Assembly: GCF_000143415.4 (NCBI RefSeq)
Contig: NW_003314263.1
Coordinates: 557,035 to 621,034 of the forward strand
Length of the DNA stretch: 64,000 bases
Source: Selaginella moellendorffii
Lineage: Eukaryota > Plantae > Lycopodiophyta
Direction of reading: 5' to 3'
Shown: positions 23,716-52,900 of the stretch, piece by piece
How positions within the stretch are numbered: the first letter of the stretch is position 1
How the letters are laid out: each line of letters starts with the position of its first letter
Notes under the pieces: model-generated
Told to the model about the DNA's origin: nothing
Databases searched by the model: none
Seen by the model: only the letters and a program-made list of their open reading frames with translations
Translations under genes and position numbers: made by a program

Positions 23716-24887
23716 ACTTCCACGTGTCATGTGTTGGTCCTTTTGGGTCCCTTTTTGGAGCCGCGCTTATTGCTCGCTTCGTGCTCATTCCTCGAGCACT
23801 TCGTTAGGAGTTCCACTCCCGCTCTCGACCTTTCAAGTCAGAGCTTTTGGCCCAAACGTGTTACACTTGTTTGGCTTTCGCTTTGGCCACTACCACGTGG
23901 CACCCTTCCGGCTCCACTTTGGGGCCTAGGGATTTTGTGTCTCACAACTCCACCACCCATAGACGAAGTTCGATGTCCTCATCGAACGGTAAACCATTTT
24001 ATAAAGTAACACCCGCATGTGTTACCATTTCCATCCTTGGCACCTAGCCAATATTTGTCAATGGTTTGACATTGAAGGCTCACCATGCCTTCTCCATATT
24101 CGTCAATAGTTTGACATTGAAGGCTCACCATGCCTTTTGCATATTCCTCAATGGTTTGACACCAAAGGCTCACCATGCCTTGCCCATCCTCTAAGGAGGG
24201 TAGTCTCTCCAACTTAGAGACTGATTGGACCACATGTAGTGATTCTCTCCTTTTATTGGTTTAGTTCTCGCTAAACCTCTTAGAGACCCTTCTCTAAGTC
24301 AATCCCACTACTCCTTCTCGAGTAGTCTCAATTTCCATCTATTGAACATTTGCACCTTGGAACTTTTACTCTTTTGACTTTTGGAAGTCAATTTCCTAGG
24401 TGTCTCCAACACCTTGCATTGCACAGATTGTGCAACTCCACTTCCCCATTCTAGGAAGTTCGTTACTTGAGGGCACCATCATCCTCTCTTCTATTTCGTG
24501 CCACCTTGGGCACTAAGTTCTATTTATCATACTTTGTGCTAAGGCTGTCCATGGCCCTATCATTTGGCTACCTTACCGCTCCCTCCCTTGGAGCTTCCAC
24601 TTTCGCCAAATTGGAGCAATTTGGAATCCATCCTTGGAAACACACTTCCTTTCCCGCAATTTGTTAGTGTCCAACACATTAGTGTTCCTCGCCTAACTTT
24701 GTCACTTGGATTCCTTCCAAGGGATTCCACGGCCCTATCTTGGCCACTCATCTTTTGCTCCTATCCATTGATTGTTGCACCAAGCAACATCGAATCTCTA
24801 CCTCCCTCCTTGAGGTATTCTTTTGATTCCATACCAAAGGCTCTGCTTTGCCAAGACTAGGGTGTTCACCCCTAGTAAGTCTCTTTA

Positions 24888-29646: not shown

Positions 29647-29678
<32 letters not shown>

Positions 29679-32600
29679 TCGGGACCGAGACCGAGACCGA
29701 GGCCGAGGCCGAGACCGAGCCCGAGCCCGAGTCCGAGTCCGAATCCGAGTCTGAGTCCGAGTCCGAGTCCGAGTCCGAGTCCGAGTCCGAGTCCGGAGCC
29801 TGAGAGGGTGAAAGCCCAAAGCGTTCATCTCCCAGACCCTGGGGGGTTTGGTGAGCTCCAAAAGTATAGTAGGGGGAGGACTGCAGTGGAGCCAGTTTGG
29901 CCCAGGAAGGCCGGACCCAGTGTTGGGTGATGAGCTGCCCACTGGGAAGTCCAAGACTAGAGTGAACACAGACCGACAAGCGGAGTAGCTTGGTGAAGTG
30001 TTCAAGAGCCGGCTCTAGTTCCCCCGGGAGATCGACTGGCCGATGCTCCCAGTCCAAGTGTGGGTGGCACTACCTACTTGGATACCTGGTGTGGCTCAAC
30101 GGAACCCGCTCTAAGCCCATGGCTAGAGCACCCAAGGGCAGAAGGCGAGGAGAGTACCCAGGTGGCTCGCATAAGGCCACGGTGTTCCGAAATGTTGTCC
30201 CAAAGGCCCAGACTGTGGAAAGGAAGAGGAGCAGTCCTCTGGGGTAGTGACCAAGGACACAGTCGTGTGGTGAGGAAGTCCCAGAGGACCGTGGGACTTA
30301 GTGGTCGGGCCTGTGGGTCTCGATCCAGTGGCAGTGTTGGCAAACACGGCCAGGGGCAGAAAGGGACTTAGTGGGGACTGACAGAGGGATATTGGGGAAG
30401 GCTATTCCCCTTGTCGGTGGGCATCCTAAGGATGCTAAGGAGTGGATCTGAGATGACCACTCACGGATGGTTTTCCTAGTCTTGGAGAGCCAAGACTGTG
30501 ATGCAAGTGGTATTGGACTACCAGTGTGGCAAAGGTGATTGGGCATGGCCTTAGCGTAACGGGCTGCTATGTCGGTGGTACCTTTGAGTGTCGGTCATGG
30601 GATCGGACACGTGGAGCACTTGGACCAAGTGCAAATGTTGAGTGGCATGGATGCCATTCTCGGGGCTAGCAAGTCCCAAGTCCTGGATTGGACTTATGGA
30701 GGTTGTGAATGAGACTCCTCCAAGTGGTCAGAGGTGTGGTTAAGTGACTAAAGTAGAATGAAAAATTTAGTCGCTTACAATTTGGTATCGGAGTTGTTCC
30801 TTAGTCCGACTTTTATTGGTGCTCAAATATATCACCACTGGTGTTGGCAACGGAAGGTCCGAGAAGTGGGCCTATCCTTGAGGAGTAGCAGGTCGGGAAG
30901 ATATGGCTCTTCATTACAGTTCATGTGTGAACTTGTAGACAAGGTGGTGGATAGAAAAAGGCCAATAATGGAACGACTTTGGGATCTTGGGAACAGTATA
31001 TGGTTTTCCTCGAAGAGTTGAGGATGTGATCCAGAGGAGCGTTTGACTTAGCAAACTAGCTAATGTAGTTGTGGTAAACAACTACAGTTGGGATCACGGG
31101 AAAGATAAAGACTCCAAAGCAATAAAGGAGGCACAAGATTTTCCTCATATAGTTGAGGTTGGTGCTTATGAATGTGAGACCAGAAGTAATGACCGTGGGA
31201 GGTCAAATACGGAAGAGGACTCAAGTCCTTGAAAAGGTAGCCGGGGCTACCTCTAATAAATGCTGGAACAACCCAAGGAGTTGGGGGTGTATTAAGTGGA
31301 TGAGTTGGTGTTCTCATCACATGGACAAGTAGTCCTAAGGGGCAAAGGTTGCCCCCAGAGAACAAAATCAAGTGTCGGAGTAACACTTGTGAAAATAGTC
31401 CTTTTGAGTAGGACAGGAATGCAAGAAGTGTATTCCAGTGAGCTAGTGCCTCACAAGTAGGACCTTACGGGTCTGTGAATTAACCAAGTCCAAAACTGCT
31501 GGATGACTCAAGTAGAGTCAACGGATAGTCCTAAAATCAAGTAAGTAATCATCAATCAAGTAACACCACGAGTAATGCCCATGTCACTACTACAAAGGTT
31601 TAAATGACTATCAAGTGCCAACTCGATTCGACAAAATGCAACATAAATGCCACACTTCACCGACAGAGATTTACAACACCCAACACCACTAACTTTTGTT
31701 CACAACATAGATAAGCTTATGCCACTCTCTATCCGACCAAACTCAACACTAATCCAACACCAAGCTACTCAAGGAGCAATAGCAAGGTTCTTTGGAAAAG
31801 AATTGAACATTGCAACCCAAGTCTTCCAATAGCAAGCTTAGACAAAATGGTATAGTGTTTCACCACTATCCATCCCATAACTCACCATTTGTAAGACCAT
31901 CATCTCCAAGATGCATCAAGGTAGGGAATCTTGATTGCATAATATGAACATGAGCAATGAGTCAACACCTCGTTGCAAATCATCTCTCCAAGAAGAGAAA
32001 ATGATTTACGTATTTGATCCTTCGTCCCTGATGACTCTCTTTTCGGTCTCATCTTTGACTAAACCTCAAGCTTGCATTCGCACTGCCTTCAGTTCAATCC
32101 AAGAAAAGTTTATGAGAGAGCACGGCAACAATTACTTGAAATCAATAGACTTATCCCTACAGTCTTGATTGATCCACTGTAACCATGCCAAGGAAGGATC
32201 CACTAGTGCCGTGCTAAACAACTACAGACCAGCCTATTTGCCACTCATAGCAAACTCAGGGAAGGTTTACTTTTACCCATGGTACAAGGAACAACTCATG
32301 GAACCACCGATAGGCTAACATTAATCCTGCCAACTCAAAGTGTAACCTTGAGTTACTAATGTGCCTCACTCACGAGTCCAAGCTCAAACTCGTGCGAACG
32401 GAACAACTCAATCCCTCTTGTGAGCCCAAGCGCAAGCTCACATCATAAGGTACAATAAGGTAACAATATCCATACCCAAGGAACCAATTGCGAAGCCTTT
32501 GCACCCAAACGTGTACCCACTCGGATCATCATTTTCATCTCTGCGTATGCAACGAGACTAGTTGCCCAATCTCATTGGATAGTACTCGCCGAGACTCATC

Positions 32601-33764
32601 CTCTGATACCAAATGTAGCGCACGTGGTTTTGACCCTTTATCCTATGGTGATTTACCATAGGATAACACCACGAAGCGGAACCTAAACCCTCTTTGTGCC
32701 ACGTGACATATGCCACGTGTCACATGCCACGTGTCCATGCCACGTGTCCATAGGAACCCGAGGTTCAGGGCCTTGAGCCACTGAACGAAGGAATGGTGCC
32801 AAACTCCCAAGCATGGAGCCAAGGAATGATGGAACCGAACCATGGAGCAACCCCTAAGCATAAAGCCCAAGGAACGAAGGGACAGGAGACCGGAGCGACT
32901 TGGAACAGTCCTAGAGTAGCCAGCATCCCAATGCCAGGACCAGCACACAAAACGGAGCCAAACGGAGTCTGGCGCTATTTCGGCATACCGGTGGCCTAAC
33001 GCGAGGATATGGGTACTCCACCAACTAGCATGGAATGGAACTTGGGCTTAGACCCAAGCCGGACGCAGAACAAGGACAGGCACGCAAGCGGAAGCTAGAC
33101 TATACCTCAGGTTGGTCGGTCATGCCCGACCTACCCACTATCCCTACTATACATTTGGAACCCCCCATAGCCCCCCCCCCCCCCCCCCTTGAGGAACACA
33201 CGCTTTAGGCTTTCACCCCAAGCCTCCTTTAGTATCAGGAGTTAGTCTTTGGGACAAGCTCGAAACTTACTAAATATGGAATGTCCTTAGATTGTGAATT
33301 TGGACACGGGACGAACACCATTGTGTTCAGGCCGATCTCTACATTCTGTAGATATGCCAAATGAGCAAATCTAGACACTTTCCATAAATAATATTTAGGA
33401 CCGAAATGAGACTAACACAAAGGGCATGATAGCGAGGGTGTTTGGCAAACACGGTAAGCTATCATCTAGCGATATTGAGGGACCAAGCTCAATATCGCGG
33501 GGGTTCCCAACACTAGCAAGTGCAAGTCAACGAATGAGTTTCTCTAACCAAGTCAAGTATGCTTGACAAATAGCACGTAGGAATTCCGTCCTTATGCTCA
33601 TCTGGTCAAGTGCACACGCGAGGACCAGTTTCTCAACTAGCTTAGGCGGAGACTGATAATGGGTCCAGCAATACCGACCTCCTGCCATCGTGGCAGTAAG
33701 GTAAGAGTGTCCGTAAGGACTAGCCGACAGGTAACTTTCGATACCTGAAGTCACATTCGCGACA
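24888..33764 (-). mobile_element. LTR retrotransposon C (decayed internal region) nested in B
   Basis: LTRs 24888-26034 and 32614-33764; TSD CTTTA; PBS TGGTATCAGAG; PPT AGGGGGGGAGAG. Confidence 0.93.
28943..31536 (+). mobile_element. Truncated B-family element (LTR 28943-30779 + PBS + leader) nested in C in opposite orientation
   Basis: Reverse-complement match to about 49545-51958; PBS TGGTATCGGAG at 30783; no second LTR or TSD seen. Confidence 0.88.
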
Positions 33765-35119
33765 CTTTAGCATCTTCTGCTGTGGGCTCTATCCACGGCC
33801 CAACTTTGTGACCCTCCCATGGGTCTCTTTAGAGACTACTTTCCTTGGACACACTATGCCATCGCAATGACATAGCTCATTTCCCTAAGGTGCTTTTCCC
33901 ACTTGGTCACCTTGACCAAGCCACACCATCATCAATAGTTCAAATCAACACTTTGAATTAGGAACTTTATTCCTTAACCCAAACAAAAGCTCTATTTCGT
34001 TAAAGTGGGATTTATTCAGTAAAATGGGACTAGGTACAAATTTTCAAGTATTTGAAAATGACGTGAAATTATATGTTTTTTGTCCAGGGGCTAGACATAT
34101 CTGGGGCATGGTGACTAGCGCGGTGACCTTATGTCCAGACTGAGTCCATCTAGTTGTATAATAAATCTCATTGTCAAGGTGAACAAGCCGAATCTGAAGC
34201 TAAAGAAGAGTGATGGCATGCGCGCACACACTATTTGTTTGTTCATTGAGCGTGTGGTGAGCTTTCCAAGATGAACATCATTCCTATTAGCCAGACATAT
34301 AACTTAATGGTGAGAACATTTAGATATTATTCAATGTTATCTTTTTCTAACGAATCTAATTGTGAAGGTGTAGCAAGAGGCATTGCTAGTCTGGAGAAGT
34401 CATTTAACTCATTTGACCTTTAGTGTATTTTCATGAAACTAAATAACATTCATATTATTAAGGAATTTCTCTAGTACCTTTTTTTTATGACATAGAGGCT
34501 TGCATTTCTTTCAAAGGTGATTTAGTAAAAGGCCTGAGGGCACATGCCATTCTATTTCTCAGACCGGTATTAAGATATACTAGTGCAAAGGGAAAAAGGT
34601 ATTTGGTGATCAAGTAAATGGCATGAGGGCACACGCCATTATAAGCCTAAGCGCTAGTGGACACCTCCTTTTTGGTACTCTCAGCGGTACTATCATCCTT
34701 CTCCGGGTCAGTTGTTTTGCTTTGGATTGTTGTCTCTGACGTTACTGGGGCGTTCTCGATAGTTGTTAATGTTGCCGTTTGTTCAGAAAAATGATCACCT
34801 GGAGTATAGTACGGGGAGTTTGGAAGACTTATATATTCTACATCTTCACCTATCTCCTTCTCCGTCTCCTTTTCTGCCTCACTTACAGATTTTGTGCTTG
34901 CCATGAGAACGCTCTTCACCCTAAAATATGGAGTTCATTGTGTTATAAAAGGAAACCAACACACACGCTGCAAGGGAATGATGGTACATAAAGCACGTAA
35001 GCCCACAATATGGGTTTATGTGCCATTAATATGGGCCACACGCCATATTATTAGATTTATGCACGTGTGATTGGTAAATGCATATGTCACATCATCTTTG
35101 TTTTACCTCACACACTATA

Positions 35120-38100
35120 TCAAGCCTCCTCTGATTCAGATTCGGATTGTTCACCTTGAAATAAAATACATTAGAAACTTTGTAAAGGAATATTAATGAA
35201 TCTCACCTTGAACCCGAGTTATGAATGCTCTTGCTGCATCTCTTGCATGGTCTGGCAAGGTGATGGTGGCACTCTGCTTCCGCATCCAACCATGCACAAC
35301 ATTATCCACCGATATGCTCATGCTGGGATCCCTTGGATTCAGCACCCATCTCTTTTCTAGGCAATCCTTCGTATATCCGGAACTTGGCTTGAACCACTCC
35401 ACAGTTACATTGAAGGAGTTAGTTTCCGCATCCTCCTCTGCATCNNNNNNNNNNNNNNNNNNNNNNNNNNNNNNNNNNNNNNNNNNNNNNNNNNNNNNNN
35501 NNNNNNNNNNNNNNNNNNNNNNNNNNNNNNNNNNNNNNNNNNNNCATATCATTTGTTTTTTATTACTGGGTCTGACAAGCACGACCATTCCTTTGCAGAC
35601 CTGTACTGGATTGAATGCTGAATCCGGCTTCTTGTTCCTCGGCCCACAATAGTGATCCTCAACATCGTTATCTGTCACTGCATTTCCAGAGGACATTGTT
35701 CCGCTACTATCTGGTGCTCTGGGTTCTGGCCAAAAGGACTCTTCCAATTCTTCATATACAACCGGCCCATTTTGGATAGCAGATATAATCTTCTCCCAGT
35801 ATTCGAGCAAAGGCTTGCACCTCTGAAAATAGGATTCTCCACCAAACACCAACCCCCTCTTCCAGAAGGCAATATGCTGTCTAATCCCGGCCACTATACT
35901 TTCCTGGTCTTTGAGTCCATCCGGGTGCATCGGCCGTGGGGAACCCTGAGGAATCATAGGTTCCCCAGTTATGGGATCTCTCTTGAAGAGTTCAATGCCG
36001 TCCACTGGCAGCCACACTGTGTCCCATTCTCTCATCTTGTACCTCATCACTGGAGCACCGTCACACATGCTGAAATGAAACTGAAGAGGCTTGGAGTGGC
36101 CAATCAGCGTTTCGGATCCGTCCCTGATGTAGCCTCTTACAAACCCCTTAAAGTCTGGAACCTCTGTCACAAGTGCAGCTTCAACAGTGCCTTTGATGCA
36201 ATTTTGGAATTCATCGTAGAGTTGTGGGAGGGTGAGGACATTGGATCGCCGGAGGGACTCTGCCAGGTGACTGAACATGGCATCGACGTCTTCATGAGTG
36301 TGCCCAACCATGAGAAAGCCAAGTGTAACCGTTTCAAATATGCCTTTGGCAACAAGCATCGCCAAGTACGCGAAGACGTACATGTTTTTGTTCTCACTGC
36401 CAGCATTGTCTGTTTGGAGCAGAAGATGGGGTGGAAGGCCACATCGGCCGCAAGAACTTCCTTGAGATTCTGCTTCGTTTGGATGAGGCTGTGCATTCAC
36501 CGGGCGACCAGCCTCGTCAGAATGGCATGAGGCCTCACGTGATAACCCTACAATCTGACGGCCAACATATTCACTGGGATGGCATGGGGCCCCACGCGAT
36601 ACTGCAAGCCTTTGCTCCTCCTCCAGCTGAACCCTGTATGGGGTTCGATCGACAAGGGCCTTATGCAAGGGTTGGCCGTTCAGCTCAGTCTGCGCACTTT
36701 GCAGAGACCTTAAGTGTTTTGCTAGGGACGCAATCATCATGTTTGCACCCCCGCCACCCCATAGAGGTACAAAGAAGTTCCCATAGTTCTGGGCACCATG
36801 CCCATGAGCGATTATGCCAAACAGAGACACAGGCAGCTGCATGGATGAAGAGATTGCCTTGGGGGCAGGATTGAGTCGAGGTAAGCACGTCTTTTTCTGG
36901 TCCATTTTGTCGTGGATGATGCAGAGGTAAGAGTCAGGTCTCTCCATGGAGAGAATCCTGTTATGATAATATGCAGTCCTGCAGCTTCTCTGCTCGATGT
37001 TGTGGTCGAGCCGCCTTCTAACCAACGTCTCTCGCTCTTGAGCGCTGCAAGAATTCTTCGACAAAGCCATTTTGATAGCAGTGCACTCGTCACACTTTGA
37101 AAAGCTGGAGTACTTTCCTATACTCACATCCCTGAACCTGTTGCTCCACAATCTACTAAATCTAGATTGGCTCAGCTTCCTGTAGCCATTACTCTGGAGT
37201 TCCCGATTCACATCTTCCAATATGGCCCCCTTGGTATACATGGAAGGGAGAACTCGTTGGGTGTCTCGTGTTTCATCTTCCAAGAGGCGGGTTTTATGTG
37301 GTTGCTGCTCGCTACATGTCTCGACAAACCTCTTGAAGATTGCCTCTCCATATACAACATGACCCCTGGTTTTGTGCGTACCGTCGTTCCCATGGACTGC
37401 CTGTTGAACCCTTTGTTCCTCGAACTCAGTTTTGATTCTGTAGAATGTGGTTCAAGGGACTCCATAAATGATTCTCCATGCCTTCATGCAGACCAAACCC
37501 CTCTGGAAGACCATGCCCCCCACCTGATGTTCTGAAGCATCAACAGATGACCGTAATGCCTCATACACAAAATTGCGAGCTGCCTTCCAGGACAATGTCT
37601 TGTATCTTGCTCTCTCCTCTTCAATAGCATCCCAATCAGCATGTTGACAGCACCTCCTCTTGCAACAAGCAACTGTCGAGACCATTCGAACCTCCATCGC
37701 CATTTTCTGCCTTTTCGGTTCGTTGCTCAGATCCCTTTGGCTGCGCTTTAGGAAGGTGTACTTTCTTTTCCCATGAAGAGATGTTCTATCATCAGTTGTA
37801 GTGGTGTTTGATTGTGAATCCTTCACATTCTCAAACACTAAGTGCCTCAATTTCCACCGCACAATGCTTCCAATAGTCAGACTGTTTTCTTCTGTGTCAA
37901 CAACCTCTAAAATCGCAACTCCAATATCATCCCAGCCCAATTCTTGATTAGCAACCGCATCTCTTGGATCGACAACTGTGGCTAAGCCCTCAGCTACCAC
38001 CTCCCCCTCGGGGTTGTTTAGAAACACTTTTGCCTGAATCCATGTAGCACGGTTCTTAAGATCCACGGAGGGAACATGCGTCGCACTTGCGCTGTCCCCA

Positions 38101-38342
38101 ACATCTGCTTTCTTCTGAAGATTTTTCAAGGCAACAACAACATTTACCCCGACGACCATCTCTCCTCGTTCAATAGCAACCACATTCCCATCGAAGACAG
38201 TCTCTACTGATACAGCAGCATTGCCTTCCCCAAGCCTTTCACAGTGTATAACAAAGTTCCGATCCATAGACACAAGGGTCCCTTTTGCAACTCTCTTCCC
38301 ACCATTCAAAATGTAAACCTTTTCCCCAACCCTGAAGGCCAT
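35120..38342 (-). CDS. Transposase (about 1050 aa) with one in-frame TGA at 37454-37452, a 100-N gap and a short last exon
   Basis: The 296-aa and 696-aa ORFs share a frame across a single stop (YGVP*TTFYRIK). Motifs FSKCDEC, HDKMDQ, QTDNAGSENKN, FLMVGHTHEDVDAMFS. Last exon GEQSESESEEA* at 35154-35120. Confidence 0.8.
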
Positions 38343-39212
38343 TCTGAAAGTGCAGAAAAGAAGTTAAGACCATACAAAAAATGATTGGAGAATGGCCTAA
38401 ATCATAACATACCAAACAACCTCAATAGCATGAGGCCACATGCCATTATTCAAACATGCTATTGACACCCACGTGAAATTTCGCATTCACAAAATTGGCA
38501 TGAGGCCTCATGCCATCTTGATATACACACAGCTGCAGGCAAGTAAAAACATACATGACAATACGCTAGCCATGAAATTGCAAGGGCCCAAGATGGCATG
38601 TGGCCTCATGCCATTTCTAAATGTGGTCCTAAGCCATTCCATGGTGAACATACCAGGAAGCACAAGTGCCGAATATCAAGAGGAAGCGGTAGCCACACCA
38701 AAGACAGTGCCGCTCGCAACACCGCAACTACTTGTAGCACCGCTCGCAACACCGCAACTGCTCGTAGCGCCGCTCGCACAAACTGCCACTCGCATAAACT
38801 GCCGCTCGCAATGGCGCTCGCAATGCCGCAACCGCTCGTAGACGCATAAACCACAGCCCACAACGCCGCTTACACAAGCAGCGCTCACTGCGCTCAGCGG
38901 AACCAAGAACACGGCGCACAAAAATGATAAACCTAGGAATGAGTTCGAGAATTCAAAAATAACACACGCTTGAACGTCACATCAAATCCTCTGACAAACC
39001 AGATCTTATGATTCCTCTGACAAATTTCAAACTGAGTAGCTTCTAGACTTTGCTGTCGGAGGTTGAACTTTGTCACATCATGTCCTTGCCTCGATCCAGC
39101 TGTGCCATGTCAGTGATTCGAACTTTGCCATGCCATGTCAGCGATCCGCGCCAAGATTATTCGCCGTGTAAAGGAATAATTACGCTGTGTGTGTACGTCC
39201 ATTTATGGCAAT

Positions 39213-39317
39213 ATAAGGCCACACGCCATTCAAAGAATAATGCTCGACATAAGGCCACACGCCATTCAAAGAATAATGCTCGACATAAGGCCACACGCCA
39301 TTCAAAGAATAATGCTA
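39213..39317 (+). repeat. 36-bp tandem repeat x3 containing the palindrome half-site
   Basis: ataaggccacacgccattcaaagaataatgctcgac repeated. Confidence 0.9.
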
Positions 39318-39709
39318 GTCGAGCATTTTTTGGTGCATTTTTGGGTTCAAAATTGCATGAGCCCACACGCTATAAAGTTTACCTGTACCAAAAATAGAAA
39401 CAGCTTTATTTACTTGGGAATTTAAGTGGTTGAGGCATTTTTAAACTTACAAACACATGCCCTACTTACATTCCTTTGGTTGCCTAAAATTCAAAAATAT
39501 TATAAACCTTTCTTTTTGCATTTTCAATGTTTTCAATTATGGTTTTTGATTTTCGTAGGACCAGCCTAGTAATCTATTTGCATCCCGTCATGTTTATAGC
39601 TAGCTTTCGTTCGTCCCCTTCGCTAGCCTGAGATACATCTGCTCGGCATCTGCCTCTTACAGCATTTGCCCAGAAAGGGCATCTTTCTTCACGCAGCATT
39701 TGCCACATG

Positions 39710-39742
39710 TTTAGGGTTTAGGGTTTAGGGTTTAGGGTTTAG
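39710..39742 (+). repeat. Interstitial telomeric repeat (TTTAGGG)x4-5
   Basis: Direct reading. Confidence 0.9.
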
Positions 39743-41339
39743 CAATTCAGTAGGTTGATAAACATGCAAATACAGAACTTGATGCAAAATCCTTTGATAT
39801 GTCACAATGCCCCTAGGACCATAAACACATTTCAATAGAGAGGGTCCTTTCATTTCATAACTCCTTACGTAGATCTTGGTGAAACCAGAGTTAGTGAAGT
39901 TAGTTTCTTGTGATCCCGCATCTGATTGTGATGTCCCTTTGCAGTTTCGATGGAAAGGTCAATGCACACCAAACTGTGAAATCTTGGAGCAAAATAACGG
40001 TCGGATCTATGGCAAATGCCCCTGAAACATTGTAAGGCTCGTGTGGTCTCATGTGGTGTCCGATTGAGATGCTTCTTTGCAGGGTCATCAAGAAAGACAT
40101 TGTATACCATTCTGTAAAATCTAGTTGCGATCTAACGGTTGGATCTCCAGAAAACTCAAAAAAATCTCGCGCGTGTCAGAATATCCTAGGAATATACTCC
40201 TATGTGCCCCTGAAAATGGCATGCGGCCCCACGCCATTCAAGAGATAATGCCAGATGACGCCGAGAATTTTTTGGTGCATTTTTTGGGTTCAAAATTGCA
40301 TGAGCCCACACGCTATAAAGTTTATCTTTGCCAAATAGAGAAAAGTTTATCTGTGTCATGTGAGGTAGTTACAGTCCTTTGTGCTCGGCATCTGCCTCTT
40401 GCAGCATTTGCACTGAAAGGGAATTTTTCTCCATTCAGCATTTGGCCCTGAAAATGGCATGCGCCCACACGCCATTCAAGGAATAACGCCACAGGACGCC
40501 TGGAGTTTTGGGTTTAAAATGTTTAGGGTTTTTTGGGTTTTTTCAAAATATTTTGGGTCCAACGTTTTTTGGGTTTCTTTGGTTCAAAATTGCATGAGCC
40601 CACACGCTATAATATTGATTTGAGAGAAAAATAGAAACAGATAGAATTTCTTTATTTAGCTGAACATCTGCCATTTTTGGAAATACAAGATGCTTTGGAA
40701 TATCCAATCATGCATGGTATAAATATAGCGAGGGTATTAAATGATATCCCAATCATGATCTTTCTTTTGGATTTCGCGTGCATGCAGTCCGAGGAATGAT
40801 GACGTTGCGGATTTCTTTTGGATTTTGCGTGCTTGCATGCGCACGGCAATCCAGAAATTAATGGTGGCGCCCAAGTCCGAGGAATGATGACGTGGCGGGA
40901 TTACCAACCGTTGTGACATTTCGCGCGTGTGAGGTTAGGTTTTGCATTTTGCTTTGTACTTGCGCTCGCACACTCGCGCTCGCGCTCGCATCACACTCGC
41001 GCTCCCGCTCGCATCGCGCTCCCACTCGCGATCACGCTCACTTCTCTACAGGTTTCTCGTGTGCATCGGCGTCCACTCGCGCTTGCATCACACTCGCGCT
41101 CGCATCGCGCTCGTGTGCATCGGCGTCCACTTCAAGACACACCCAGTTTGTAACTTCGCCGCCAACTCCGCCGCCCACTCCACCACCCACACGCAGCCCA
41201 CTTGGCGTCCCGGGAGATTTCAGCACCACTCTCCAACTGTAAGTGGCAGAGTAGCCTTGCTGCTACGATCCGCTGCACACACAGTGCACATTCGCCAGCG
41301 AGTCCGGCCTCGATTGTCACGGCCTCCATTCGGCTTCAA

Positions 41340-44300
41340 ATGGTAAGTCTTTTAGACGAAGTAGAAAATGGCATGAGGCCACATGCCATTCAGTAGCAAC
41401 ATTGGCATGCACCGATTGGGCTCTCGAGTGCAGTCCGGTTACAGATGGCGTGTAGCCTCACGCCATCTTAGGATGCAGCCTCAAGACATCTGATGCAGTG
41501 GTGAATGGCGTGTGGCCTCACGTTATTTCCAGCTGCTAGCTTTTCATCTGTCAGCTCTAATTGTTGTGCATTTTTGAACAGGCGAGGAATTGCGTTCTTC
41601 TTCCAGCCACTGTCAATGTGGATGCAGAGAAGGGGGAGGAGCTCACCAGTTGGACTTTCGGGATGGAAGGCGAGGATCTGATGCTGTACAACACAGATGG
41701 TGGGAGAAAAGAATGCATGGGGATCCTCATCCAAGTGACAGACACTCCATGCAGTTCCATGCAAGAATATGGACTGGCACTTGTGGTAGAGACAGCGTCC
41801 GCCTTCAAGATCCACCTTGCACATCCTAGCGGCTTCCCGGAGGGGGGCAGCGGCTATGAGGAATTCCTAGAGGGAGCTAGGGAGAGGTTGTCCAGGAGGC
41901 CCACAATTTCAAAGACGCTGCGGGTCTATGAAGATCACATGGAATCCACGGACCTCACCTACGGCGATGTTCAAAAACTATATTCCAACATTGAGCCATT
42001 GAGAGTGCCTCCAGTTTGCGAAGCGAAGGGGAAGGGGGTCGATCTGGAAACTACCCCGAAGCAGAAAAGGGTGGTCAAGCTCAAGCCGACGTCCGACTCT
42101 GCTGCTCCAAAAAAGAAGCTACTCGGTGATGCCATTGCCTCGGGTTCGAACACTACACCCACCAAAAAGAAGAGCCGCAAAGAGCAGAAAGAGCAAGAAG
42201 AGGCAGCAAAAATCGTCGCAGATAATAGTACTTGTTACTATTCCAACAAAGTATATACAATCGACGTGAGCCGTATCGAGATCCAAAGCAAATACAACCA
42301 CAGGCTAGTATCTGATGAGTGGGTGGAGAAACTGAAGCAGAAGATGCTGGCAAGTCCAGTAACACCCGACATCGCAGACGTGATCCCCTACTACCGAACA
42401 ATGAAGGGCGAGACGAGGTTTCCAGACTTGATCAATAGGAAGGTGTTGGACGATCAGAACATCCGGTTCTATGCCGTCTCCGGGCAGCATTCTAGCTTGG
42501 CGATGCAACAGATAGTTGTGGATATTATGGTGGGCGAGGAGGTGAAGAAAGTCTTCAAGACAAGAGTTGTCCGCCTGATAAAAGGCAACTCGCCCCTCCG
42601 ATCTATCATATACATCTCCCACGCGCAGAATGTCAAGCAAGAAACGTGCTACAAATCGGGTCTGCACGAAACATTGGCACGAACACGGAAGCTCTGGGTT
42701 CAACTGAAGAAGCCACAAAAACCAGGACAAGGACGTGCACTAGCAACTAGCGCCTGGCAGGTAAGCCTCGTTGCATGTGGCATAGCATGTGGCCTCACGC
42801 CATTTCCATTGCAGGAATTCTCGAGTCTTCTCTCGAAAACACTGGGGGTCAATGACACACTCAGCATCCATAACATTCTACTCGCGACAAAAGTTGTTTT
42901 TGACAAATGGGTAGATGTGCTAAGGAGGTACCATGACGGGGAGTTGCTAAACTCAATGGGTGTGGAGGACGGCCGGAAGCCCAATGATTTGAAGCTCAAC
43001 GCCTTGCGTTTCTCGCGGTCTCTAGACGACGACGACCTTCTGACAGTGGCTAATGCTCTTCTACTTGGTGAGGTAGTCTTCAACAAGACCAAAATGACTC
43101 CCGGCCATATTGTGACATACGAGGACTTGTGCACGACTCTGAGAGCTCGTGCGCTATTGAAGGATTGGATCTTCGAGCAAGTGGCCGTGGCGAGGGTGAG
43201 CATCGACACCACGCAAGAGATGATGGAAGAGCTGGACTTGTCAAATGAAGACATCGACGAGTACGTGAAGGGGGCCCCCAAGTTCATCGATCTGCTGCGG
43301 GATGCCACGAAAAGTAAAGCTGAGAAGTTGGATCAGTATCCAAATTTCATTAAGAGGGATGTCGACCGCCGGCTTCAGAAACAGCTCGACCCCGCAGCAG
43401 AGGCCTATCGAGAACCTTACCGGGTATACGTGAATTCGGATGAGGATCAAAGGTGGAGGAGCATCGTTTCCCGCGGAGATGAGCAGGTCAAGAACATCTT
43501 TTGTGTGATGGACTTCACAAACGAGGAGATCACTCATGCAGACGAAGTCAGCTCCATCATTGACTTAATGGTGGGACTTGCGGAGGTGGAATCTTCAATC
43601 CACTATATGATCTACGACTCCGAATCCTATCACAAGTTCTGGAAGGCCTTGAACGAGGTGAAGGCTCGGTTGAAAGGCAAGGAGATGCGGGAGATCCATG
43701 GGATAATGGCTAAGAAGAAGATACCGACGAATGTCCGCATCTTCACAGTCGCCCTTGTTATTGGTCCTGCAGCAGAGTGGGACTGGAGTGACTTCCCAGC
43801 TTCGTTCAACAAAGCCGATCGAATTGATCTGAGGGAGGTCAATTTACCCGTGCCTGAGGAACTGAAGACGGCTATGGAGCTTTCGAATCCAAAGAAAGCT
43901 CCAGGTGCAGCATGGGAAATGCTCAGCTGGGTCTTCAATGCAATAGCGGGTGACTCCAAGGGCAAATGCGTTGTCGAGTACAACTGCGGCGGACTATTCT
44001 TTCGAGCCGCACTACTCAAGGGTGTCCCGTGTGTTGCGATGACAAACTCCATTGAAGAGGTGACTTCAATGGAGCATATAATTACAGTTGCCAAAGAAAA
44101 ACAGTATCTTCTCTACGAACCTGGTGAGTACGCACTTTAAGTTTAAATGTTATCTCACAAGCTCTGTATGCAGGAGCGTGGCCACCCCCAGATGCTGAAA
44201 CGGCGTTAACAGCTACTGATGTTAGGCCGAGGTCACAACCTGCACAAGGTAAGGTCACGTGAGGCCTCACGCCATTTTGATTATAGATCGTTGTGAATAT

Positions 44301-46930
44301 TCAGACACGAGGACTGAAAAGCGCACTGGTGGCGCGTCGAAGAAGGACAAACAGACAAGCAATAGGAAAAAAGGAGGTACAAATTATATTTGCAATGGCG
44401 TGTGGTCTCATGCCATTCCTTGCAGGAGACACTTCTTCAAAGGCAAAACAGGCAAGCACCAGCCAAGCTCAAACTGACAGTGGTCATAAAAAGCGAAAGC
44501 ACGTTGGACAGTCGTCGGGATCAGAGGCGTTTGATTTGAAAAGGAAGAAGGGCAACGAAAAGGTGATAGGTAATGCCTCGCGGTTATGGCGTGTGTGCTC
44601 ATGCCATTCATTGCAGATCAAGGGCTGAGTGAAAGGAGCCAGTCACCACCTTCTGACTCAGATTCCTATGGCAGACTCCCCTTCCCCAATCTCAATGGAG
44701 AGGTACAATGGATGAGGGATGCTTTTCAAGTTAGGGCCACGTTTTTCTCATCTCGTCGTCTTCGAAGGGTGCAAGAACGTGCAGAAACCATGTTAAGACA
44801 GTCGGGTGAGGATACGGTCCTAGGTCACGCACTAAAACAGGCTATGGATGTCTTGTATTTTGAGATGGAGACTCGGCCAGATGATTTTTCCAAGATGGTC
44901 CTGGAAAAACAAGCAATCCAGCCTGAGCAGCCTATGGAAGAAATGCAAGAGGGGGATGAGGAGCCAGAGAAAGATAATGAGCAGGAAGAGCAGAAGGACG
45001 AAGAGGAGGACGAAGAAGAGGAGGATGAAGAAGAAGGAGAAGCAGGAGGCTTGGATGGTCCTCACAATGGTGACGATCACAATAACGACGATGACGATGA
45101 TGACGATGATGGCCAGCCTGAGGTGGCCAAAGAGCAGCGGAGGAAGGTCATACAAGACAAACCATCAGGTAAATAATAGTACATCCATTCCTAACCTTTT
45201 ACCATTTCTAACATTGTCCATGTAGGTCGCAGAAGAAATGGTAAGTAGAGATTATTCAGTTGAATTAAGATACAAACTCTAGCCTTTAGTGTCGAGGAAG
45301 GATAGTGCCAAGCAAGGGTCGAAACGTATGTCCAATCCTTCAGAATCAGCAGTGCGCCCAAGTGATATCGGTCCTAGTTCCTCAATAGCAGTTGATGGTA
45401 AATACAGTATAGTCGATTCAATGTGCTAATGAGTTTGTTTTTAGTAGCACGGGAGGATACCATCTCAATCGAAGGGAGATATTTGGACATGCATATGGAT
45501 CCGCCAGTGGACTCTACTTGCCTGCAAGAGTCATCAGAGCTGGTGGAGGCTACTATCCATATCAACGCCAAGCAAGCTGACCACGCTCCACTTGATGCTG
45601 CCCATACCACTGAGTCAATCTTGTCCACGTATCCAACTGACGGTGACCAGGCGCCATTGGACCCGCATGAGGCCGCCCCAGCCGCCGAGCCGGTCGTATC
45701 CTCATTTCCAACGTGTGCCCAATCGTCTGACTACGCGCCGTTGGAACCTCCCTACACCGCCCCTGCTGCCTGTTCGGTCATGTCCACTTTGCCAACGGAG
45801 CCACCAGCTGAAATGGCGTGTGATCACACGCCATCGGAACCACCCCATGCCACTGTTGAGCCAGTTGTACCAGAGTCTACAGCTGAAATGGCATGTGCCC
45901 ACACGCCATCGGATGCGATTGACCCCACATTGCAGAGGAGAGTATTTCCGCCCTTCACGTTTCCTCGACCAAAACCCTCTGAACGACCATCGGGAGCACC
46001 ATTCGCTAATATTGTAGATGGTAAAATTGACTTGTACCATTTTTTATGCTAACGCATTTCATTTCAGAGTCACGGCGAAAGTACTGTATCGTTTTTGATC
46101 TGAACGGTGTCCTTTTCTCCCATGAGCGTGGCTCGTCCTCGAATGTCACTGCACCCTCCAAAGCCTGCGGTCGCAAGTTGGTCAAAAGAGACAGATTCAC
46201 ATTAATCACACGGGAGAAACTGCGGGATCTAATAATGACCATGCGACACTTAAAACAGAGGGCCGGGTTCAATTTGCAATTGGGAGTTTGGACATCCATG
46301 ATGCGCCACAATGCATTAACGTTGCTACAGATGATGCACGATCAGACGCGAGTAATATTACCATTTGACTTTCTCCTAACGCAGGAGGATTGCTTGACTA
46401 TGGTCCATGTGAGGGGTAGCAAGCCCATCTTCGTCAAGGCAGAGGCTGTAGTGATGAACCGGACTGCTAGGTCAAGTGAAATCCTCATCATCGATGACTC
46501 GCCGATTAAAACTGCAGCGAACACGCACACATATGCAGTGCACCCCATCTCTTGCAGTATGGAAACTAGGGAGAAGAAACCGTATGTTCTGGGGGACCTT
46601 GCAAAACGGCTTGAAGCGATGGTGATAGAGAACCGGCCAGTCCAGGAGGTGGCTGCAGAAATCAACCAAATGGCAGATGGAACGGTATATCAGAAGCCAT
46701 TTGATCGGACAGACACCAGTCATCATTTATGGCATGTATATTGTCTAGCTAAGCACTATCCGCATCTCCATAATCTGCTCAACCGGATGGGTTCTTCGAC
46801 CACTGAACATGAGCGTGGACGTATTAGAGAAGAGATGGCATTACTATTGGGTTTAAATCCTGATAGTGTGGAGAGTGATGAAATTCCAAGATTATTGTAT
46901 AGGCGTTGGAGGCAAAAAATAACAGTCTGA
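41340..46930 (+). CDS. Transposon-borne 11-exon gene, about 1630 aa: ParB/Srx-like + degenerate amino-MTase-like + acidic disordered + FCP1/NIF HAD-like
   Basis: Exons 41340-42, 41582-42760, 42815-44123, 44174-44248, 44305-44376, 44426-44569, 44617-45168, 45226-45240, 45290-45397, 45448-46020, 46068-46930; all GT-AG, phase-consistent, no stops. Domain calls by eye. Confidence 0.75.
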
Positions 46931-49900
46931 GATGGCATGTATTTATTTAAAAATGTAACTTATTATGGCATGGGGTTCCATGCCATTGTATTAATATTAA
47001 AAGACAATTCTTTGAGAGGATTTGCATTATACTAGAAGTGTTACAGCATGTTATTGGAAGTCTACGAAGTTGTTTTATTAATAAGGGGAAAGTAAAGATT
47101 GAATGGGGACTTGGGCTCCACCTAGACTCGGAGCAACTGAGCCAATATTAAAAGGATGGAAAGAAATTGGACGACAATGACAAGGAGAAGAGAGAGGTGA
47201 AGCAGTGAGAAGTGATTGAGTAGACATTTCCTTGTTTAAAATAAAATGGCATGTGCCTCAATGCAGTTGAATTTTGTTATATTTATATACTATATAAAGG
47301 TTTGGAAACCTTATTTTACAAGTGGGATAATGACAATTCCCACTTTAACGAAATAGAGCTTACAAGGACCTTGTCCTTATTTAGCCACAAGATCACCTAG
47401 TGATCTCACCTCGGCACCTTAACAGGTTTGCCAATAGGTACTAGGTCTTCCAGACCTTTAACTTGCTAACTACGACCCCGGGGGCATCCCCCACACTTGG
47501 CGGTGCACCCAAGCCAGCCCTTCCGGCCAAGGGTCCATAGCAACTGAGACTGGGTGTCCCCATCTCATTCACCACGTCCTTGGTGCCACACTAAGCAATC
47601 TAACCGTGCATCACGACTCCGGGGCATCCCCCGCTTGGCGGTGTGCCCAAGCCAATCTCCTTATTGAGAGTCCATGACCACCGAAATATGAGTGTCCTCA
47701 TATTCCAAACCATCACCACGCCCTAGTGATTTGGGACTCGAACCCAAGCACTAGAGGGTCGGGACTCGAACCCAACCTCCGTATATGCATCTACGGACGG
47801 CATCACCCAGGATGCCTGGCGTGACTCTTCACGCCGGTGCACCAACTTATACTCAAAGCGCGCTATAGATCACAGCTTAGGAACCTGGTTCCCCACTGCC
47901 AAGTCCTTTCACTTGACAAGCCTGTGATCATGCATGGACTCCTCCATGTTTGGCCCCATGGCCCACCCTTTTTGAAATTATCACCTTCAACTAGGGTGTT
48001 TGTTCCCCTGACTTGCCAATCTCGCTTTGGCAAGTCTTCCAACCACTGTAACATGGTTCCTGCACAAGCGTGAAAGCCCTTGATCATCGACTTTCGTTCA
48101 AAGCCCTCTCTTTGAACACTCGGGAACTACTTCCCTAACCTTGATAGCCTTGCCTCATGGCAAGCTTCAAGACCACGCTTTTGCTGTGCCACTCTGATTT
48201 TGCGCGTTCCTTGAACCATTTACGCTTGGCCTTTCTAGGTACTAAGCTACCTAGAATCCTCTTTACGAACCTTGAAGGAACTCTGTCCCTTAGCTTGCTA
48301 AGGCCTCTCTTTTTGCAAGCTTTCCAATTACTATATAGTCTAACATGGACAATTCCATATTTTAGACTCTCCATGGCATCACGGTTGCTAGCAGCAACAC
48401 CCTCGAGCCCCCACTTGATTCTCCACTCCCAGCTAGCATAACCAACCTTGGTTATGCCCTTCGTTTCCTATGGTTCGGTTCTATCCCCTTACTTCTTGCT
48501 TTTGGCTTCACACCTTTCCTTCGGTCATTCTCCTCCAGACCAGGGGGATAGCTTTGCACTTTCTATCATGCCTTAGCAAGTATTTATAGGGATGAACCTA
48601 CCCGATAGCCTAGGGAGTGGTTCCTCAATCCAGGTATGCTCACCCTATAATCCCACACACCGGGATTACGTTGTTGCTTACGGGCCTTTGCATGCCCATT
48701 GCTAGCCTTGCCAAAATTCCATTTTTGGCTTTGTCCAATTCGAGTAGACAGTTTTCTCCTGTCTCCGCCACCTTGGACATTTGGATAGCACCTACTACCC
48801 ATCATTCGCTAGGGACTTAGTCCCTTCGGCCTTATCTACTGCCCTCGCGACATCAAACACCAGCTCCTAGTGTTCTAGAGTGTTTGGGTGTCCCAATGAC
48901 GGCTTCCTTGACAATGAGCATTTCCTTTTATGACATTGACTTACTATATCGCAACATAAGCAACTTATCCCTCGTAAGGGTATATCCAACTTCCCTATGC
49001 CATTAAAAAGGCTTGGGTAGCTACCTTCTACCCGTTTAACCAATTATTTCGCACCTCTTGCTTAGTTGCCTCGTAGTTGTCAAATTTTACAACTCATTGC
49101 TGGTGCTTCCACACCTCCATCATTATCTGGGTGGTCACCACACTCCAACTGCATGCTCTGCAACTTAGGCTATGCCATTCCCATTTCTATTGGGATTCCT
49201 TTGGCAAGGGGTTCTCATGAACCCACTAACATAGCCTCAAGGTATCACACCTTGACACATTTGGTGTTTCCACACCTTTATGACACTTCTTCTTTGTGTC
49301 TAAGTCTTTGCCAAGACCAATACCACTCTTTCTCATGCCAACCATCCGTTAGCATTGCACTATAGAGGTCACACACAACTTTGTGTCAAAGTTGTTTTTT
49401 TTTTGGGAACACCTTTCCCACGACTTTAGCATGGCATATTTTGCCATCGATGAGATACCCTCTGTTCTCATCCTTGGATCCTATGATCCCCCCCCATCCT
49501 TCGTGGGGTACAACACACCTCAGTCCAAATGCTTCCATCAGTCCTTTTAGGACCATCCCTTGACTCTACTTGAGTCATCCAGCAATTTTAGACTTGGTTA
49601 ATCCACAGACCTGTAAGGTCCTACTTGTGAGGCACTAGCTCACTGGAATACACTTCTTGCATTCCTGTCCTACTCAAAAAGACTATTTTCACAAGTGTTA
49701 CTCTGACACTTGATTTTGTTCTCTGGGGTTAACCTTTGCCCCTTAGGACTACTTGTCCATGTGATGAGGATAGCAACTCATATTTAAGTACACCCCCAAT
49801 TCCTTGGGTTGTTCCAGCATTTATTAGAGGTAGCCCTGGCTACCATTTCAAGGACTGGTGTCCTCTTCTGTATTTGACCTCCCACAGTCAACAATTCCGG

Positions 49901-52900
49901 TCTCAAATTTATGAGTACCAGCCTCAACCATATAAGGGTAATCTTGTGACTCCTTTATTATTTTGGAGTCTGCATCTTTCCCGTGATCCCAACTGTAGTT
50001 GTTTACCACAACTACATAAGCCAGTTTGCTAAGTCAAACGCTCATCTGTATCACATCCTCAACTCTTTGAGGAAACCCTTATACTGTTCCCAAGATCCCA
50101 AAGTCATTCCATTATTGGCCCTTTTCTATCCACCACCGTGTCTACAAGTTCACACATGAACTATAATAGAGAGCCATGTCTTCCCGACATACTACTCCTC
50201 GAGGATAGGCCCACTCCTCGGACCTTCCGATGCCAACACCAATGGTGATATACTTGAGCATCAATAAAGTCAGACTAAGGAACAGCTCCGATACCAAATT
50301 GTAAGCGACTAAATTTTCCATTCTACTTTAGTCACTTAACCACACCTCCGACCACTTGGAGGAGTCTCAATTCACAACCTCCATAAGTCCAATTCAGGAC
50401 TTGGGACTTGCTAGCCCCGAGAATGGCATCCATGCCACTCAACATTTGTACTTGGTCCTAGTGCTCCACGTGTCCGATCCCATGACCGACACTCAAAGGT
50501 ACCACCGACATGGCAGCTTGTTACGCTAAGGCCATGCCCAATCACCTTTGCCACACTGGTGGTCCAATATCACTTGCATCACAGTCTTGGCTCTCCAAGA
50601 CTAGGCAAACCATCTGTGAGTGGTCATCTCATATCCACTCCTTAGCATCCTTAGGATGCCCACCGACAAGGGGAATAGCCTTCCCCAATATCCCTCTGTT
50701 AGTCCCCACTAAGTCCCTTTCTGCCCTTGGCTGTGTTTGCCAACATTGCCACTGGATCGAGGCCCACAGGCCCGACCACTAAGTCCCACGGTCCTCTGGG
50801 ACTTCCTCACCACACGACTATGTCCTTGGTCACTGTCCCAGAGGACTACTCCTCTTCCTTTCCACAGTCTGGGCCTTTGGGACAACATTTCGGAATACCG
50901 GGGCCTTACGCGAGCCACCTGGGTACTCTCCCTGCCTTCCGCCCTTGGGTGCTCTAGCCATGGGCTTAGAGCGAGGTTCCGTTGAGCCACGCCTGGTATC
51001 CAAGTAGGTAGTGCCACCCACACTTGGACTGGGAGCATCGGCCAGTCGATCTCCCGGGGCAACTAGAGCCGGCTCTTGAACACTTCACCAAGCTACCCAG
51101 CTTGTCGGTCCGTGTTCACTCTAGTCTTGGACTTCCCAATGGTCAGCTCATCACCCAACACTGGGTATGGCCTTCCTAGGCCAAACTAGCCTTTCCTGGG
51201 CCAAACTGGCCCTTCCTGGCCAAACTGGCTCCACTGGGCTCCAACCCCCACACTCTCCCTACTATACTTTTGGAATCCCCGGCAGCCCCCCCCCCCCCCC
51301 CCCCTGGGGGACAATCGCTTTGGGCTTCCACCCAACTGCCTGTATTAGTATTTGGACTCAGACTCGGACTCGGTCCCGGTCCCGGTTTCGGACTTGGACT
51401 CGGTCTCGGTCTCGGCTTCGGCCTCGGTCTCGGTCTCGGTCTCGGGTCCATCTCGGACTCCATCTCGGACTCCATCTCGGGTCCATCTCGGACTCCATCT
51501 CGGACTCCATCTCGGGTCCATCTCGGACTCCATCTCGGACTCCATCTCGGGTCCATCTCGGACTCCATCTCGGGTCCATCCCGGACTCCAACTCGGACTC
51601 CAACTCGGACTCCACTTCGGACTCCAACTCGAACTCCACCTCGGACTCCACCTCGGGTCCTTCTCGGACTCCAGTTCGGACTCCAGTTCGGACTCCAACT
51701 CGGGTCCATCTCCGGTCCATCTCAGACACTTCCACGTGTCATGTGTTGGTCCTTTTGGGTCCCTTTTTGGAGCTGCGCTTATTGCTCGCTTCGTGCTCAT
51801 TCCTCGAGCACTTCGCTAGGAGTTCCACTCCCGCTCTCAACCTTTCAAGTCGGAGCTTTTGGCCCAAATGTGTTACACTTGTTTGGCTTTCGCTTCGGCC
51901 ACTACCACGTGGCACCCTTCCGGCTCCACTTTGGGGCCTAGGGATTTTGTGTCTCACAAAGGTCTCCACCTAGGAAATGGAGGTTGTCAATCTGGACAAC
52001 GCTAACAAAATCGATAAGTATGACCAATTTCATCACATGCCTAGTAGCGAACATCACGGCCAGGACCATGTCCTCGTCCTTGTCCTTGGACTCGAGCAGC
52101 AACAGCATCAAGTGGAGCTGAAGGACGTGCAGCGAGAAGTGGAAGAGGTGACGTTTCATAATGTTGTGCCAAGTGAAGAGCATCGTCAAGGGTGGCAGGA
52201 GCAAGTGCATGCACAAGTCTGACAAAATCTTGATGAAGTGCTAGCCACAACATTCCTAGCTTGATCCGCTCCGACATATTTGGCTCCGCACGAAGCAAAA
52301 GACTTCGGAAACAAACGCCAAATTGCATCACCGACTTAGATGGCCCTTGGCGAAGACGATGCAATTGTTGGAAGGCATCATCATAGTTGTCGGCATGTCC
52401 GAAGGCACATTTAAATACGTCTGGGAGAAAACTCCAATCCCCACGAGTGGCTGCGCTCAAACTATTGTACCACTGCAACACCATCCCTTGGAGACACGTG
52501 GGAAACTCACGCAAATGTTGAGTATCATCCCAAGAATAATATGTGGCAATCACCGTGAAGTGATCGAACCAATGGAACACATCATCCCCAGGATTCCCGC
52601 GAAAGAACTCTGGCCGAACGCGAGGATTGGCACCAAGAGCAGGAGGAGTTGTACCACGTGCCGTGAATGATGCCATCAACTGAGTTTGGTTGTTCAATTT
52701 CAAGCACATAGCATTAAGCAACTGTATCAATTGTTGCTCCAGAGTCAAAGGAGGAGATTGTTGATCTACCATGAAGACGAACAAGAAAGAAAGATAAAAA
52801 AAAGAGAAATGACAAAAAGCTAGAAGGAAATGGTAGATCTAGATAATGCAAAAAGCTAGATCTAAACCAAAATCTTTAAAGGAAAGAACAAAAAAAAGGA

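Follow-up and report, generated by a model that had tools for sequence, protein, structure and literature searches.

Which molecule recognises the palindrome repeated throughout a giant transposon of the lycophyte Selaginella moellendorffii, and what does it do there? The question is raised by a 64,000-nt stretch of the genome (assembly GCF_000143415.4, contig NW_003314263.1, positions 557,035 to 621,034 of the forward strand), referred to here as the window. It contains a Sola1-like element at 33987-47361, 13.4 kb long and bounded by 27-bp terminal inverted repeats (TIRs) and a 4-bp target-site duplication, ACAA. The element carries a transposase gene, a predicted accessory gene on the opposite strand and 26 copies of a 22-bp palindrome. 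The predicted ParB-like fold of the accessory protein, taken together with the 26 palindromes, suggests that the element labels its copies by means of a protein that it encodes itself. Judging from the structural model, we consider it probable that this protein binds the palindromes in dimeric form and controls the copies of its family.

Copy number and symmetry of the palindrome

An earlier note on this DNA described about 26 copies of a palindrome with fixed spacing, confined to the transposon, whose conserved arms enclose a 6-nt spacer of variable sequence. Enrichment was judged inside versus outside the element within the window. The pattern ATGGCRTG-N6-CAYGCCAT occurred 11 times exactly and 22 times with up to two mismatches, always at 34213-46986, compared with a mean of 0.06 such matches in 100 shuffled sequences. 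With a symmetrised position weight matrix, 26 sites within the TIR-bounded element reached a score of at least 10, and the other 50.6 kb held no such site. When the matrix was made stricter by restricting it to the 11 exact sites, it gave 26 sites inside and one outside at a score of at least 10, and 23 inside and none outside at a score of at least 15. Both the copy number and the confinement thus stood, as did the fixed spacing, since 18 of 21 half-site pairs were 6 nt apart. The spacer sequence, in contrast, proved less free than the earlier note had supposed: it follows W-G-S-S-C-W, with G at place 2 and C at place 5 in 92% of sites, and therefore the entire 22-mer is a dyad.

The variable R and Y positions of the two arms were independent (A-C 13, A-T 6, G-C 4, G-T 2, C-T 1; Fisher’s test, p = 1). 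This bears out the absence of covariation reported earlier and, with a dyad spanning the whole 22-mer, is more consistent with a site for a dimeric protein than with a hairpin, as that note had proposed. The R/Y position behaves as a CG/CA/TG switch, which may reflect deamination or a binder blind to the difference between methyl-C and T. Flanking sequences of the 26 sites fell into 21 mutually unrelated groups, so the flanks are indeed mostly unrelated. Target duplications next to the palindromes were at chance level (4-mers: one observed, 0.9 expected), and the copies do not look like independent micro-insertions in this respect. The sites extend well beyond the subterminal regions, again as first noticed, and the greatest gap between neighbours is 1904 bp.

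No exact match to the full consensus was found in prokaryote genomes, and a viral-contig control gave 62 exact pattern matches, one per locus in every case. Copy-to-copy differences within the seven palindromes covered (154 of 3701 bases) numbered 0 of 37, with about 1.5 expected, which is uninformative.

Location of the sites

The sites are distributed as follows; being palindromic, they are listed without strand.

34213..34639: three palindromes (34213, 34529, 34618) downstream of the transposase frame
36522..36600: two palindromes (36522, 36579), both in a variable transposase linker that is either coding or a predicted 114-nt in-frame GT-AG intron
38425..38614: palindromes at 38425, 38495 and 38593, in a predicted intron with GT/AG ends immediately 5' of the transposase start codon
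39244..40610: seven palindromes, at 39244, 39280, 39352, 40216, 40295, 40454 and 40589, between the divergent genes
41368..41526: palindromes at 41368, 41445 and 41505, in accessory gene intron 1
42782..42803: palindrome in the 54-nt intron 2, with its CTCAC at -18, where a branch point would lie
44254..44607: palindromes at 44254 (intron 4), 44395 (intron 5) and 44586 (intron 6)
45813..45909: two in-frame palindromes (45813, 45888) within a proline-rich linker of exon 10
46965..47267: two palindromes downstream of the accessory gene (46965 and, weak, 47246)

Non-coding positions were strongly preferred: coding DNA makes up 58% of positions but holds four of the 26 sites, the other 22 being non-coding (p = 9e-6, uncorrected for duplicated neighbours). 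All four coding copies fall in variable linkers. Within the accessory gene, seven of nine sites lie in predicted introns, which make up 8.7% of its positions (p = 1e-6, likewise uncorrected for duplicated neighbours).

The only branch-like word in introns 2, 5 and 6 is the CTCAY contributed by the palindrome, at -18, -16 and -16, respectively; in introns 5 and 6 it reads CTCAT. The palindrome thereby supplies the sole CTVAY at -16 to -18 in three of the four short introns that carry one (chance about 0.02). Of the five palindrome-free short introns, four hold CTAAY or CTCAC between -15 and -17, the exception being intron 8. By overlapping the branch point, the palindrome seems to have been accommodated in introns of minimal length.

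The intergenic sites lie partly within local duplications. Telo-box-like plant repeats are found in the promoter region that the divergent genes share, as is a local duplication of about 300 bp, and GCTCGCA-rich repeats occur upstream of both genes.

Accessory gene and predicted protein

The gene model and the regions assigned to its product are given below.

41340..46930, plus strand (opposite to the transposase): accessory gene, 11 predicted exons, 1631 amino acids, no internal stop
Predicted introns 1-5: 41343-41581, 42761-42814, 44124-44173, 44249-44304, 44377-44425
Predicted introns 6-10: 44570-44616, 45169-45225, 45241-45289, 45398-45444, 46021-46067
42230..43150, plus strand: ParB/Noc/KorB-like N-terminal region and helical DNA-binding-domain-like region (model residues about 11-316)
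43406..44122, plus strand: beta-class DNA methyltransferase fold without DPPY (model residues 404-641)
46068..46930, plus strand: NIF/FCP1-like phosphatase domain of the haloacid dehalogenase type (DLNGVL ... IIDDSP), in the last exon

Removal of the ten predicted GT-AG introns from 41340-46930 leaves 1631 stop-free codons. An alternative donor for intron 6, 7 nt upstream of the one adopted, breaks the frame. Intron 2 corresponds to an alignment gap in homologues, several of whose open reading frame (ORF) calls stop there. In one possible RNA run, contigs continue through introns 1, 2 and 6, so that splicing is neither shown nor refuted by it.

An exhaustive search with the accessory protein returned 15 matches, two of which are unrelated repeat proteins according to Pfam. 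The liverwort Riccia encodes two homologues (P0094 and P0097) with an identical domain order: ParB-like, weak N6_N4_Mtase and NIF. A word-based homologue search and a PHROGs search gave no match, a sequence search of the PDB gave a spurious cytochrome match only, and scans of metagenome and viral contigs found no accessory-gene loci. The best viral match was a phage ParB/Sulfiredoxin protein (697 columns, expectation value (E) 1.9e-6). Atlas features placed phage ParB and methylase clusters at 0.78-0.79, which is a lead only.

Over the N-terminal and DNA-binding regions (model residues 15-318), the structural model resembled ParB, Noc and KorB with Z of 8.6-10.8. The predicted ParB/Srx-type N-terminal fold matched Caulobacter ParB (7bm8) with Z 10.3 and a root-mean-square deviation (rmsd) of 2.3 over 99 aligned residues, and matched PadC with Z 9.5. 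Modelled residues also aligned with the ParB-DNA complex 6t1f (178 of 190 residues, rmsd 4.8, Z 8.7) and with 8qa9 (186 of 208 residues, rmsd 5.7), so that a helical DNA-binding domain may follow; the alignments reach model residue about 315, with the helical region taken from the full model. ParB, Noc and KorB bind palindromes as dimers.

The nearest named Atlas clusters for the ParB-like domain (window 42200-42760) were fungal DUF3723 (score 0.95, 184 of 256 features). DUF3723 is a Starship accessory gene and may have a ParB fold; a literature search for both terms returned nothing.

The following region of the model resembled beta-class methyltransferases in its fold and in the order of its motifs (CcrM 6pbd, Z 12.4, rmsd 4.6 over 194 aligned residues; MboIIa, Z 12.1), and Pfam N6_N4_Mtase was detected below threshold in the Riccia homologues (E about 0.005). 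At the position of the catalytic (D/N/S)PP(Y/F) motif, a column assigned by position, all 11 of 11 sequences read DFT, DLT, DVT, DLR, DSA or DAT. Pfam NIF gave E 5e-6 in the accessory protein, above the cut-off, and E 2e-14 in Riccia P0094. The DxDxT motif is replaced by DLNGV here and by DVEGL in Riccia, and phosphatase activity is therefore uncertain.

Transposon ends and transposase

The boundaries and the second gene of the element are as follows.

33983..33986, plus strand: left target-site duplication ACAA, repeated after the right TIR at 47362-47365
33987..34013, plus strand: left TIR, 27 bp, beginning AAGCT, 96% complementary to 47335-47361
34003..34029, plus strand: end motif AARTGGGA, two copies (34003 and 34022); also at the right end (47320 and 47338)
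47335..47365, minus strand: right TIR (47335-47361) and duplication ACAA (47362-47365)
35193..38342, minus strand: DUF7869 Sola1-like transposase of the three-aspartate (DDD) type with an N-terminal Transposase_23-like piece (Pfam)

All four copies of AARTGGGA in the element are terminal, two per end, and six more occur elsewhere in the window. The motif is a candidate transposase site, unrelated to the palindrome.

The transposase was identified by Pfam as DUF7869 (E 1.7e-42), with a weaker Transposase_23 match (E 0.019). In this copy the frame is broken by a stop (37452-37454) and by a gap of 100 N in the assembly (35445-35544); a copy 97% identical (P0016) is open across the stop position. 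Near-identical element copies were present in four of four sequencing runs examined. Among 64 transposase homologues, the named ones are mostly from Riccia and a few from animals. Homologues in Riccia, Calypogeia and Selaginella are in line with a host among the non-seed land plants. Three aspartate motifs, HDKMDQ, DN and HEDVD, are conserved across the alignment and are presumably catalytic.

Sola transposons are characterised by TIRs, a 4-bp target-site duplication and a DDD transposase (PMC10741241, accessible part), all of which are seen here (27-bp TIR, ACAA, DDD-type transposase). The AA...TT termini and the A-ending duplication also agree with the supplement row for Sola1-1_Ec32 (PMC12477816). 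The element is best described as Sola1-like on its sequence features, Pfam naming the transposase only as DUF7869.

Palindromes in related elements

Relatives comprised 80 metagenome loci with related transposases; several represent the same insertion, and many contigs are short or decayed. The sequence TRGTGGCCACYA occurred 232 times in 55 of the 80 loci, compared with 2-5 times in five shuffles and not at all in 346 kb of viral loci or in the window. In a quick tree of 78 rows (the window, 48 of the 80 loci and 29 proteins) it marked one clade distant from the window, being present in 31 of its 33 rows; the remaining 15 loci had none. The window motif and that of the distant clade have the core G-W-GGCC-W-C in common, a single two-lineage comparison that is not proof of a common binder.

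Examination of 16 loci revealed that other DUF7869 elements also have palindromes of their own, 18-22 bp long and present in 4 to about 10 copies.

L063:526-1850, L064:632-930, L078:52-2940, L079:3-160: palindromes of other families

A decayed ParB-like accessory gene (E 5e-10) was found at L098 (300-6050), on the transposase strand, and 13 of the 18 family-specific palindromes there flank it in clusters of eight and five. NIF/FCP1-like relics adjoin palindromes at L125 (5885-12413) and L132 (179-2061). The L125 element is TIR-bounded, 6.5 kb long, with the duplication CTAT and the NIF relic inside. In both L112 and L125 a palindrome lies about 80-100 bp from each end.

Interpretation and alternative explanations

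Given its dyad symmetry, its lack of covariation and its occurrence in the two genes as well as between them, the palindrome is most readily understood as a dimer site on double-stranded DNA. The sites occupy transcribed DNA of both strands as well as the intergenic region, and the nine sites of the accessory gene reach about 6 kb from the nearest end, beyond the need of end pairing. A family-specific motif enriched in the non-coding parts of its element, as seen here, is also a trait of VANC-type systems. We propose that the predicted accessory protein would bind the 22-bp sites across its own element as a dimer. By analogy with VANC, the likeliest outcome would be anti-silencing, in which both divergent promoters and the gene bodies remain accessible although the genome is methylated. 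Self-repression in the manner of KorB, or aid to transposition, could be the outcome instead. The methyltransferase domain, having lost its catalytic motif, would serve as a DNA-contact or dimer scaffold, and the same loss makes the FCP1-like domain the candidate effector. A more far-reaching scheme is a eukaryotic system of the ParB/parS type. A nucleotide-gated clamp would load at the 26 sites, some doubling as branch points in 50-nt introns, spread along the element, and bring an FCP1-like phosphatase to chromatin or RNA polymerase II; the element would then govern its transcription or silencing through dephosphorylation instead of DNA modification. We regard this scheme as rather improbable.

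Several results weigh against binding by the accessory protein. The gene model has no seen splice joint in any sequencing run. The structure model, computed from 24 sequences, has a mean predicted local distance difference test (pLDDT) score of 67 and a predicted template modelling score of 0.43 (a single-sequence fold, pLDDT 32, was unusable); several ParB alignments have an rmsd of 10-12 owing to domain orientation, and a Pfam scan of the protein did not call ParB_N. GxxR is the canonical ParB motif for binding and hydrolysis of cytidine triphosphate (CTP). Its arginine, part of the CTP patch, is Ser or Thr in the GQH(S/T) of all 17 aligned sequences, with an upstream Arg and a downstream Asn mostly conserved nearby; the missing arginine weakens the case for a CTP-driven sliding clamp, which is a possible mode of action. 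Among the relatives, no TIR or element ends were found at L098 that would link the relic to the transposase. The TIR-bounded elements L112 (5.4 kb, seven sites, duplication TAAA) and L113 (4.6 kb, six sites) have no detectable ParB gene, and in further relatives palindromes were seen on contigs that showed no accessory gene. Relics were found at 3 of the 80 loci (ParB gene at one, NIF at two). The evidence from relatives cuts both ways, with the relics of L098, L125 and L132 on one side and L112 and L113 on the other.

These small elements lend some weight to the idea that the transposase itself, through helix-turn-helix-like or Transposase_23/DUF8039-like N-terminal domains, binds the palindromes for end pairing and self-activation, the accessory gene being cargo. 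We consider this the main rival explanation, possible but doubtful. Plant DUF7869 elements commonly have family-specific palindromes (L063, L064, L078 and L079), and the TRGTGGCCACYA clade includes elements of 4.6-5.4 kb that are too small for a full accessory gene. In L112 and L113 the sites are found close to the ends and within a predicted intron of the transposase gene, and L112 and L125 have a site by each end. In the case of AtMu1, the transposase alone can demethylate and activate its family (10.64898/2026.08.24.746577). However, the AtMu1 transposase peaks described there sit at TIRs, whereas here the sites fill accessory introns. The palindrome is also unlike the TIR, the ends bear their own repeated motif AARTGGGA, and most sites of L098 surround the accessory relic and not the transposase. 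The short elements might have arisen by deletion and be supplied in trans, and a NIF relic persists in L125.

The other explanations are unlikely even when taken together. A role of the sites at the RNA level, where a host or element protein would recognise them as hairpins or splicing signals, would accord with the location of most sites in predicted introns or untranslated regions, with the supply of the only CTVAY in short introns, and with the non-Watson-Crick R/Y cases on the transcribed strand (G-U 6, A-C 2). It is nevertheless very improbable: covariation is lacking, the would-be loop is symmetric as well (G10 and C13 paired in 23 of 26), seven sites are intergenic, and an Rfam search gave no match. 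The branch-point overlap is better explained by the squeezing of a DNA site into a 50-nt intron. Exploitation of a host transcription factor by the element is just as improbable. Half sites resembling CACGTG or CACGCC may be akin to plant G-box-type words, but the 50.6 kb of flanking host DNA holds no site at the threshold score, and the motif differs among element clades, as expected for an element-encoded binder. Least likely of all, with hardly any probability left, is that the palindromes are independent micro-insertions or intron-generating elements. Introns 2, 5 and 6 do have common 3' ends, but target duplications and copies outside the element are lacking. The position of intron 2 is common to homologues only 24-28% identical, and this intron therefore appears older than its palindrome.

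Surrounding window

The element is flanked by a 1.15-kb direct repeat (24887-26036 and 32613-33766, 96.6% identity) and by a 2.2-kb repeat family, present in either orientation and containing 12-bp internal repeats (29407-31536 and 49545-51727). Ty3/Gypsy gag and pol frames were recognised at 9812-13995 and 52041-52838, and a second, diverged Ty3/Gypsy copy at 16345-20063. GST_C_5-like ORFs at 15174 and 53740 lie in repeated segments. Three tandem 1041-bp units at 19995-23120 are 99.8% identical and may be an assembly artefact or a recent duplication. Minus-strand ORFs at 5955-8518, with ATG17-like domains and a weak ubiquitin-like match, probably belong to a host ATG11-like gene or fragment.

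Comparison with known systems

The literature comparisons below refer to the accessible parts of the sources cited. A 2025 proposal holds that ParB-like accessory genes of algal (seaweed) transposons bind their own elements (PMC12477816; 10.1101/2025.02.11.637652). The closest case is Sola1-1_Ec32 of Ectocarpus, whose opposite-strand gene encodes ParB and N4C/N6A methyltransferase domains and is proposed to bind and modify its own element (PMC12477816, which cites Iyer et al. 2011 for similar algal proteins). Both are giant Sola1-type elements with AA...TT termini, a 4-bp duplication tending to A-end and an opposite-strand accessory gene. The Selaginella element differs in its land-plant host, its length (13.4 versus 21.5 kb), its TIRs (27 versus 282 bp) and its accessory protein (1631 versus 1104 amino acids). 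As far as the proteins can be compared by description, the methylase catalytic motif is missing here and an FCP1-like domain has been added. The text of PMC12477816 names no binding site for the Ectocarpus protein, whereas here the 22-mer is a candidate. The accessory protein’s family is not described in the accessible part of PMC4738411.

In red-algal Plavaka (EnSpm) elements, the ParB-like gene PAG3 adjoins inverted-repeat arrays (10.1101/2025.02.11.637652). A ParB-like accessory protein and element-borne inverted repeats as proposed sites are thus common to both systems. Plavaka differs in superfamily, in its 2-oxoglutarate-oxygenase effector and in having tandem arrays by the gene, where the present sites are dispersed and intronic.

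In VANDAL, VANC motifs are concentrated in non-coding sequence, introns included (PMC5735166). As with VANC/VANDAL and TnpA/Spm, an element-encoded protein would here be paired with short family-specific motifs in intronic, intergenic and terminal non-coding DNA (PMC5735166; 10.64898/2026.08.24.746577). The VANC and TnpA motifs are 8-10 bp long, often tandem and not described as palindromes in these sources, and the proteins belong to other families. Their function was shown by experiment, whereas that of the present system is deduced from sequence and a predicted model.

The modelled N-terminal fold, and possibly the helical region after it, is like that of the bacterial systems ParB/parS, Noc/NBS and KorB/OB (6t1f, 7bm8, 7ol9, 8qa8, 8qa9). 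A further likeness is that several dispersed palindromes lie on the replicon that encodes the binder. The Selaginella element departs from these systems in its 22-bp site, in carrying GQH(S/T) where they have the GxxR arginine, in the fusion of methylase-like and phosphatase-like domains to the protein and in its eukaryotic introns; a ParA partner was not seen.

The element offers a precise candidate site, with 26 natural variants of one 22-mer and an intact predicted reading frame. If the accessory protein binds it, plants would have one more system of anti-silencing or self-regulation alongside VANC and TnpA, assembled from bacterial or phage components and equipped with a new effector domain; it might also serve as a sequence-specific tool for keeping transgenes active. 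Literature searches found no land-plant case; preprint supplements lay outside their scope and may bear on novelty. Already known are the ParB-methylase accessory genes of Ectocarpus Sola1 and the ParB-like gene with inverted-repeat arrays of red-algal Plavaka. New, within the searches made, are the occurrence in a land plant, the fusion of a degenerate methylase to an FCP1-like domain, the dispersed intronic sites overlapping branch points and the clade-specific palindromes.

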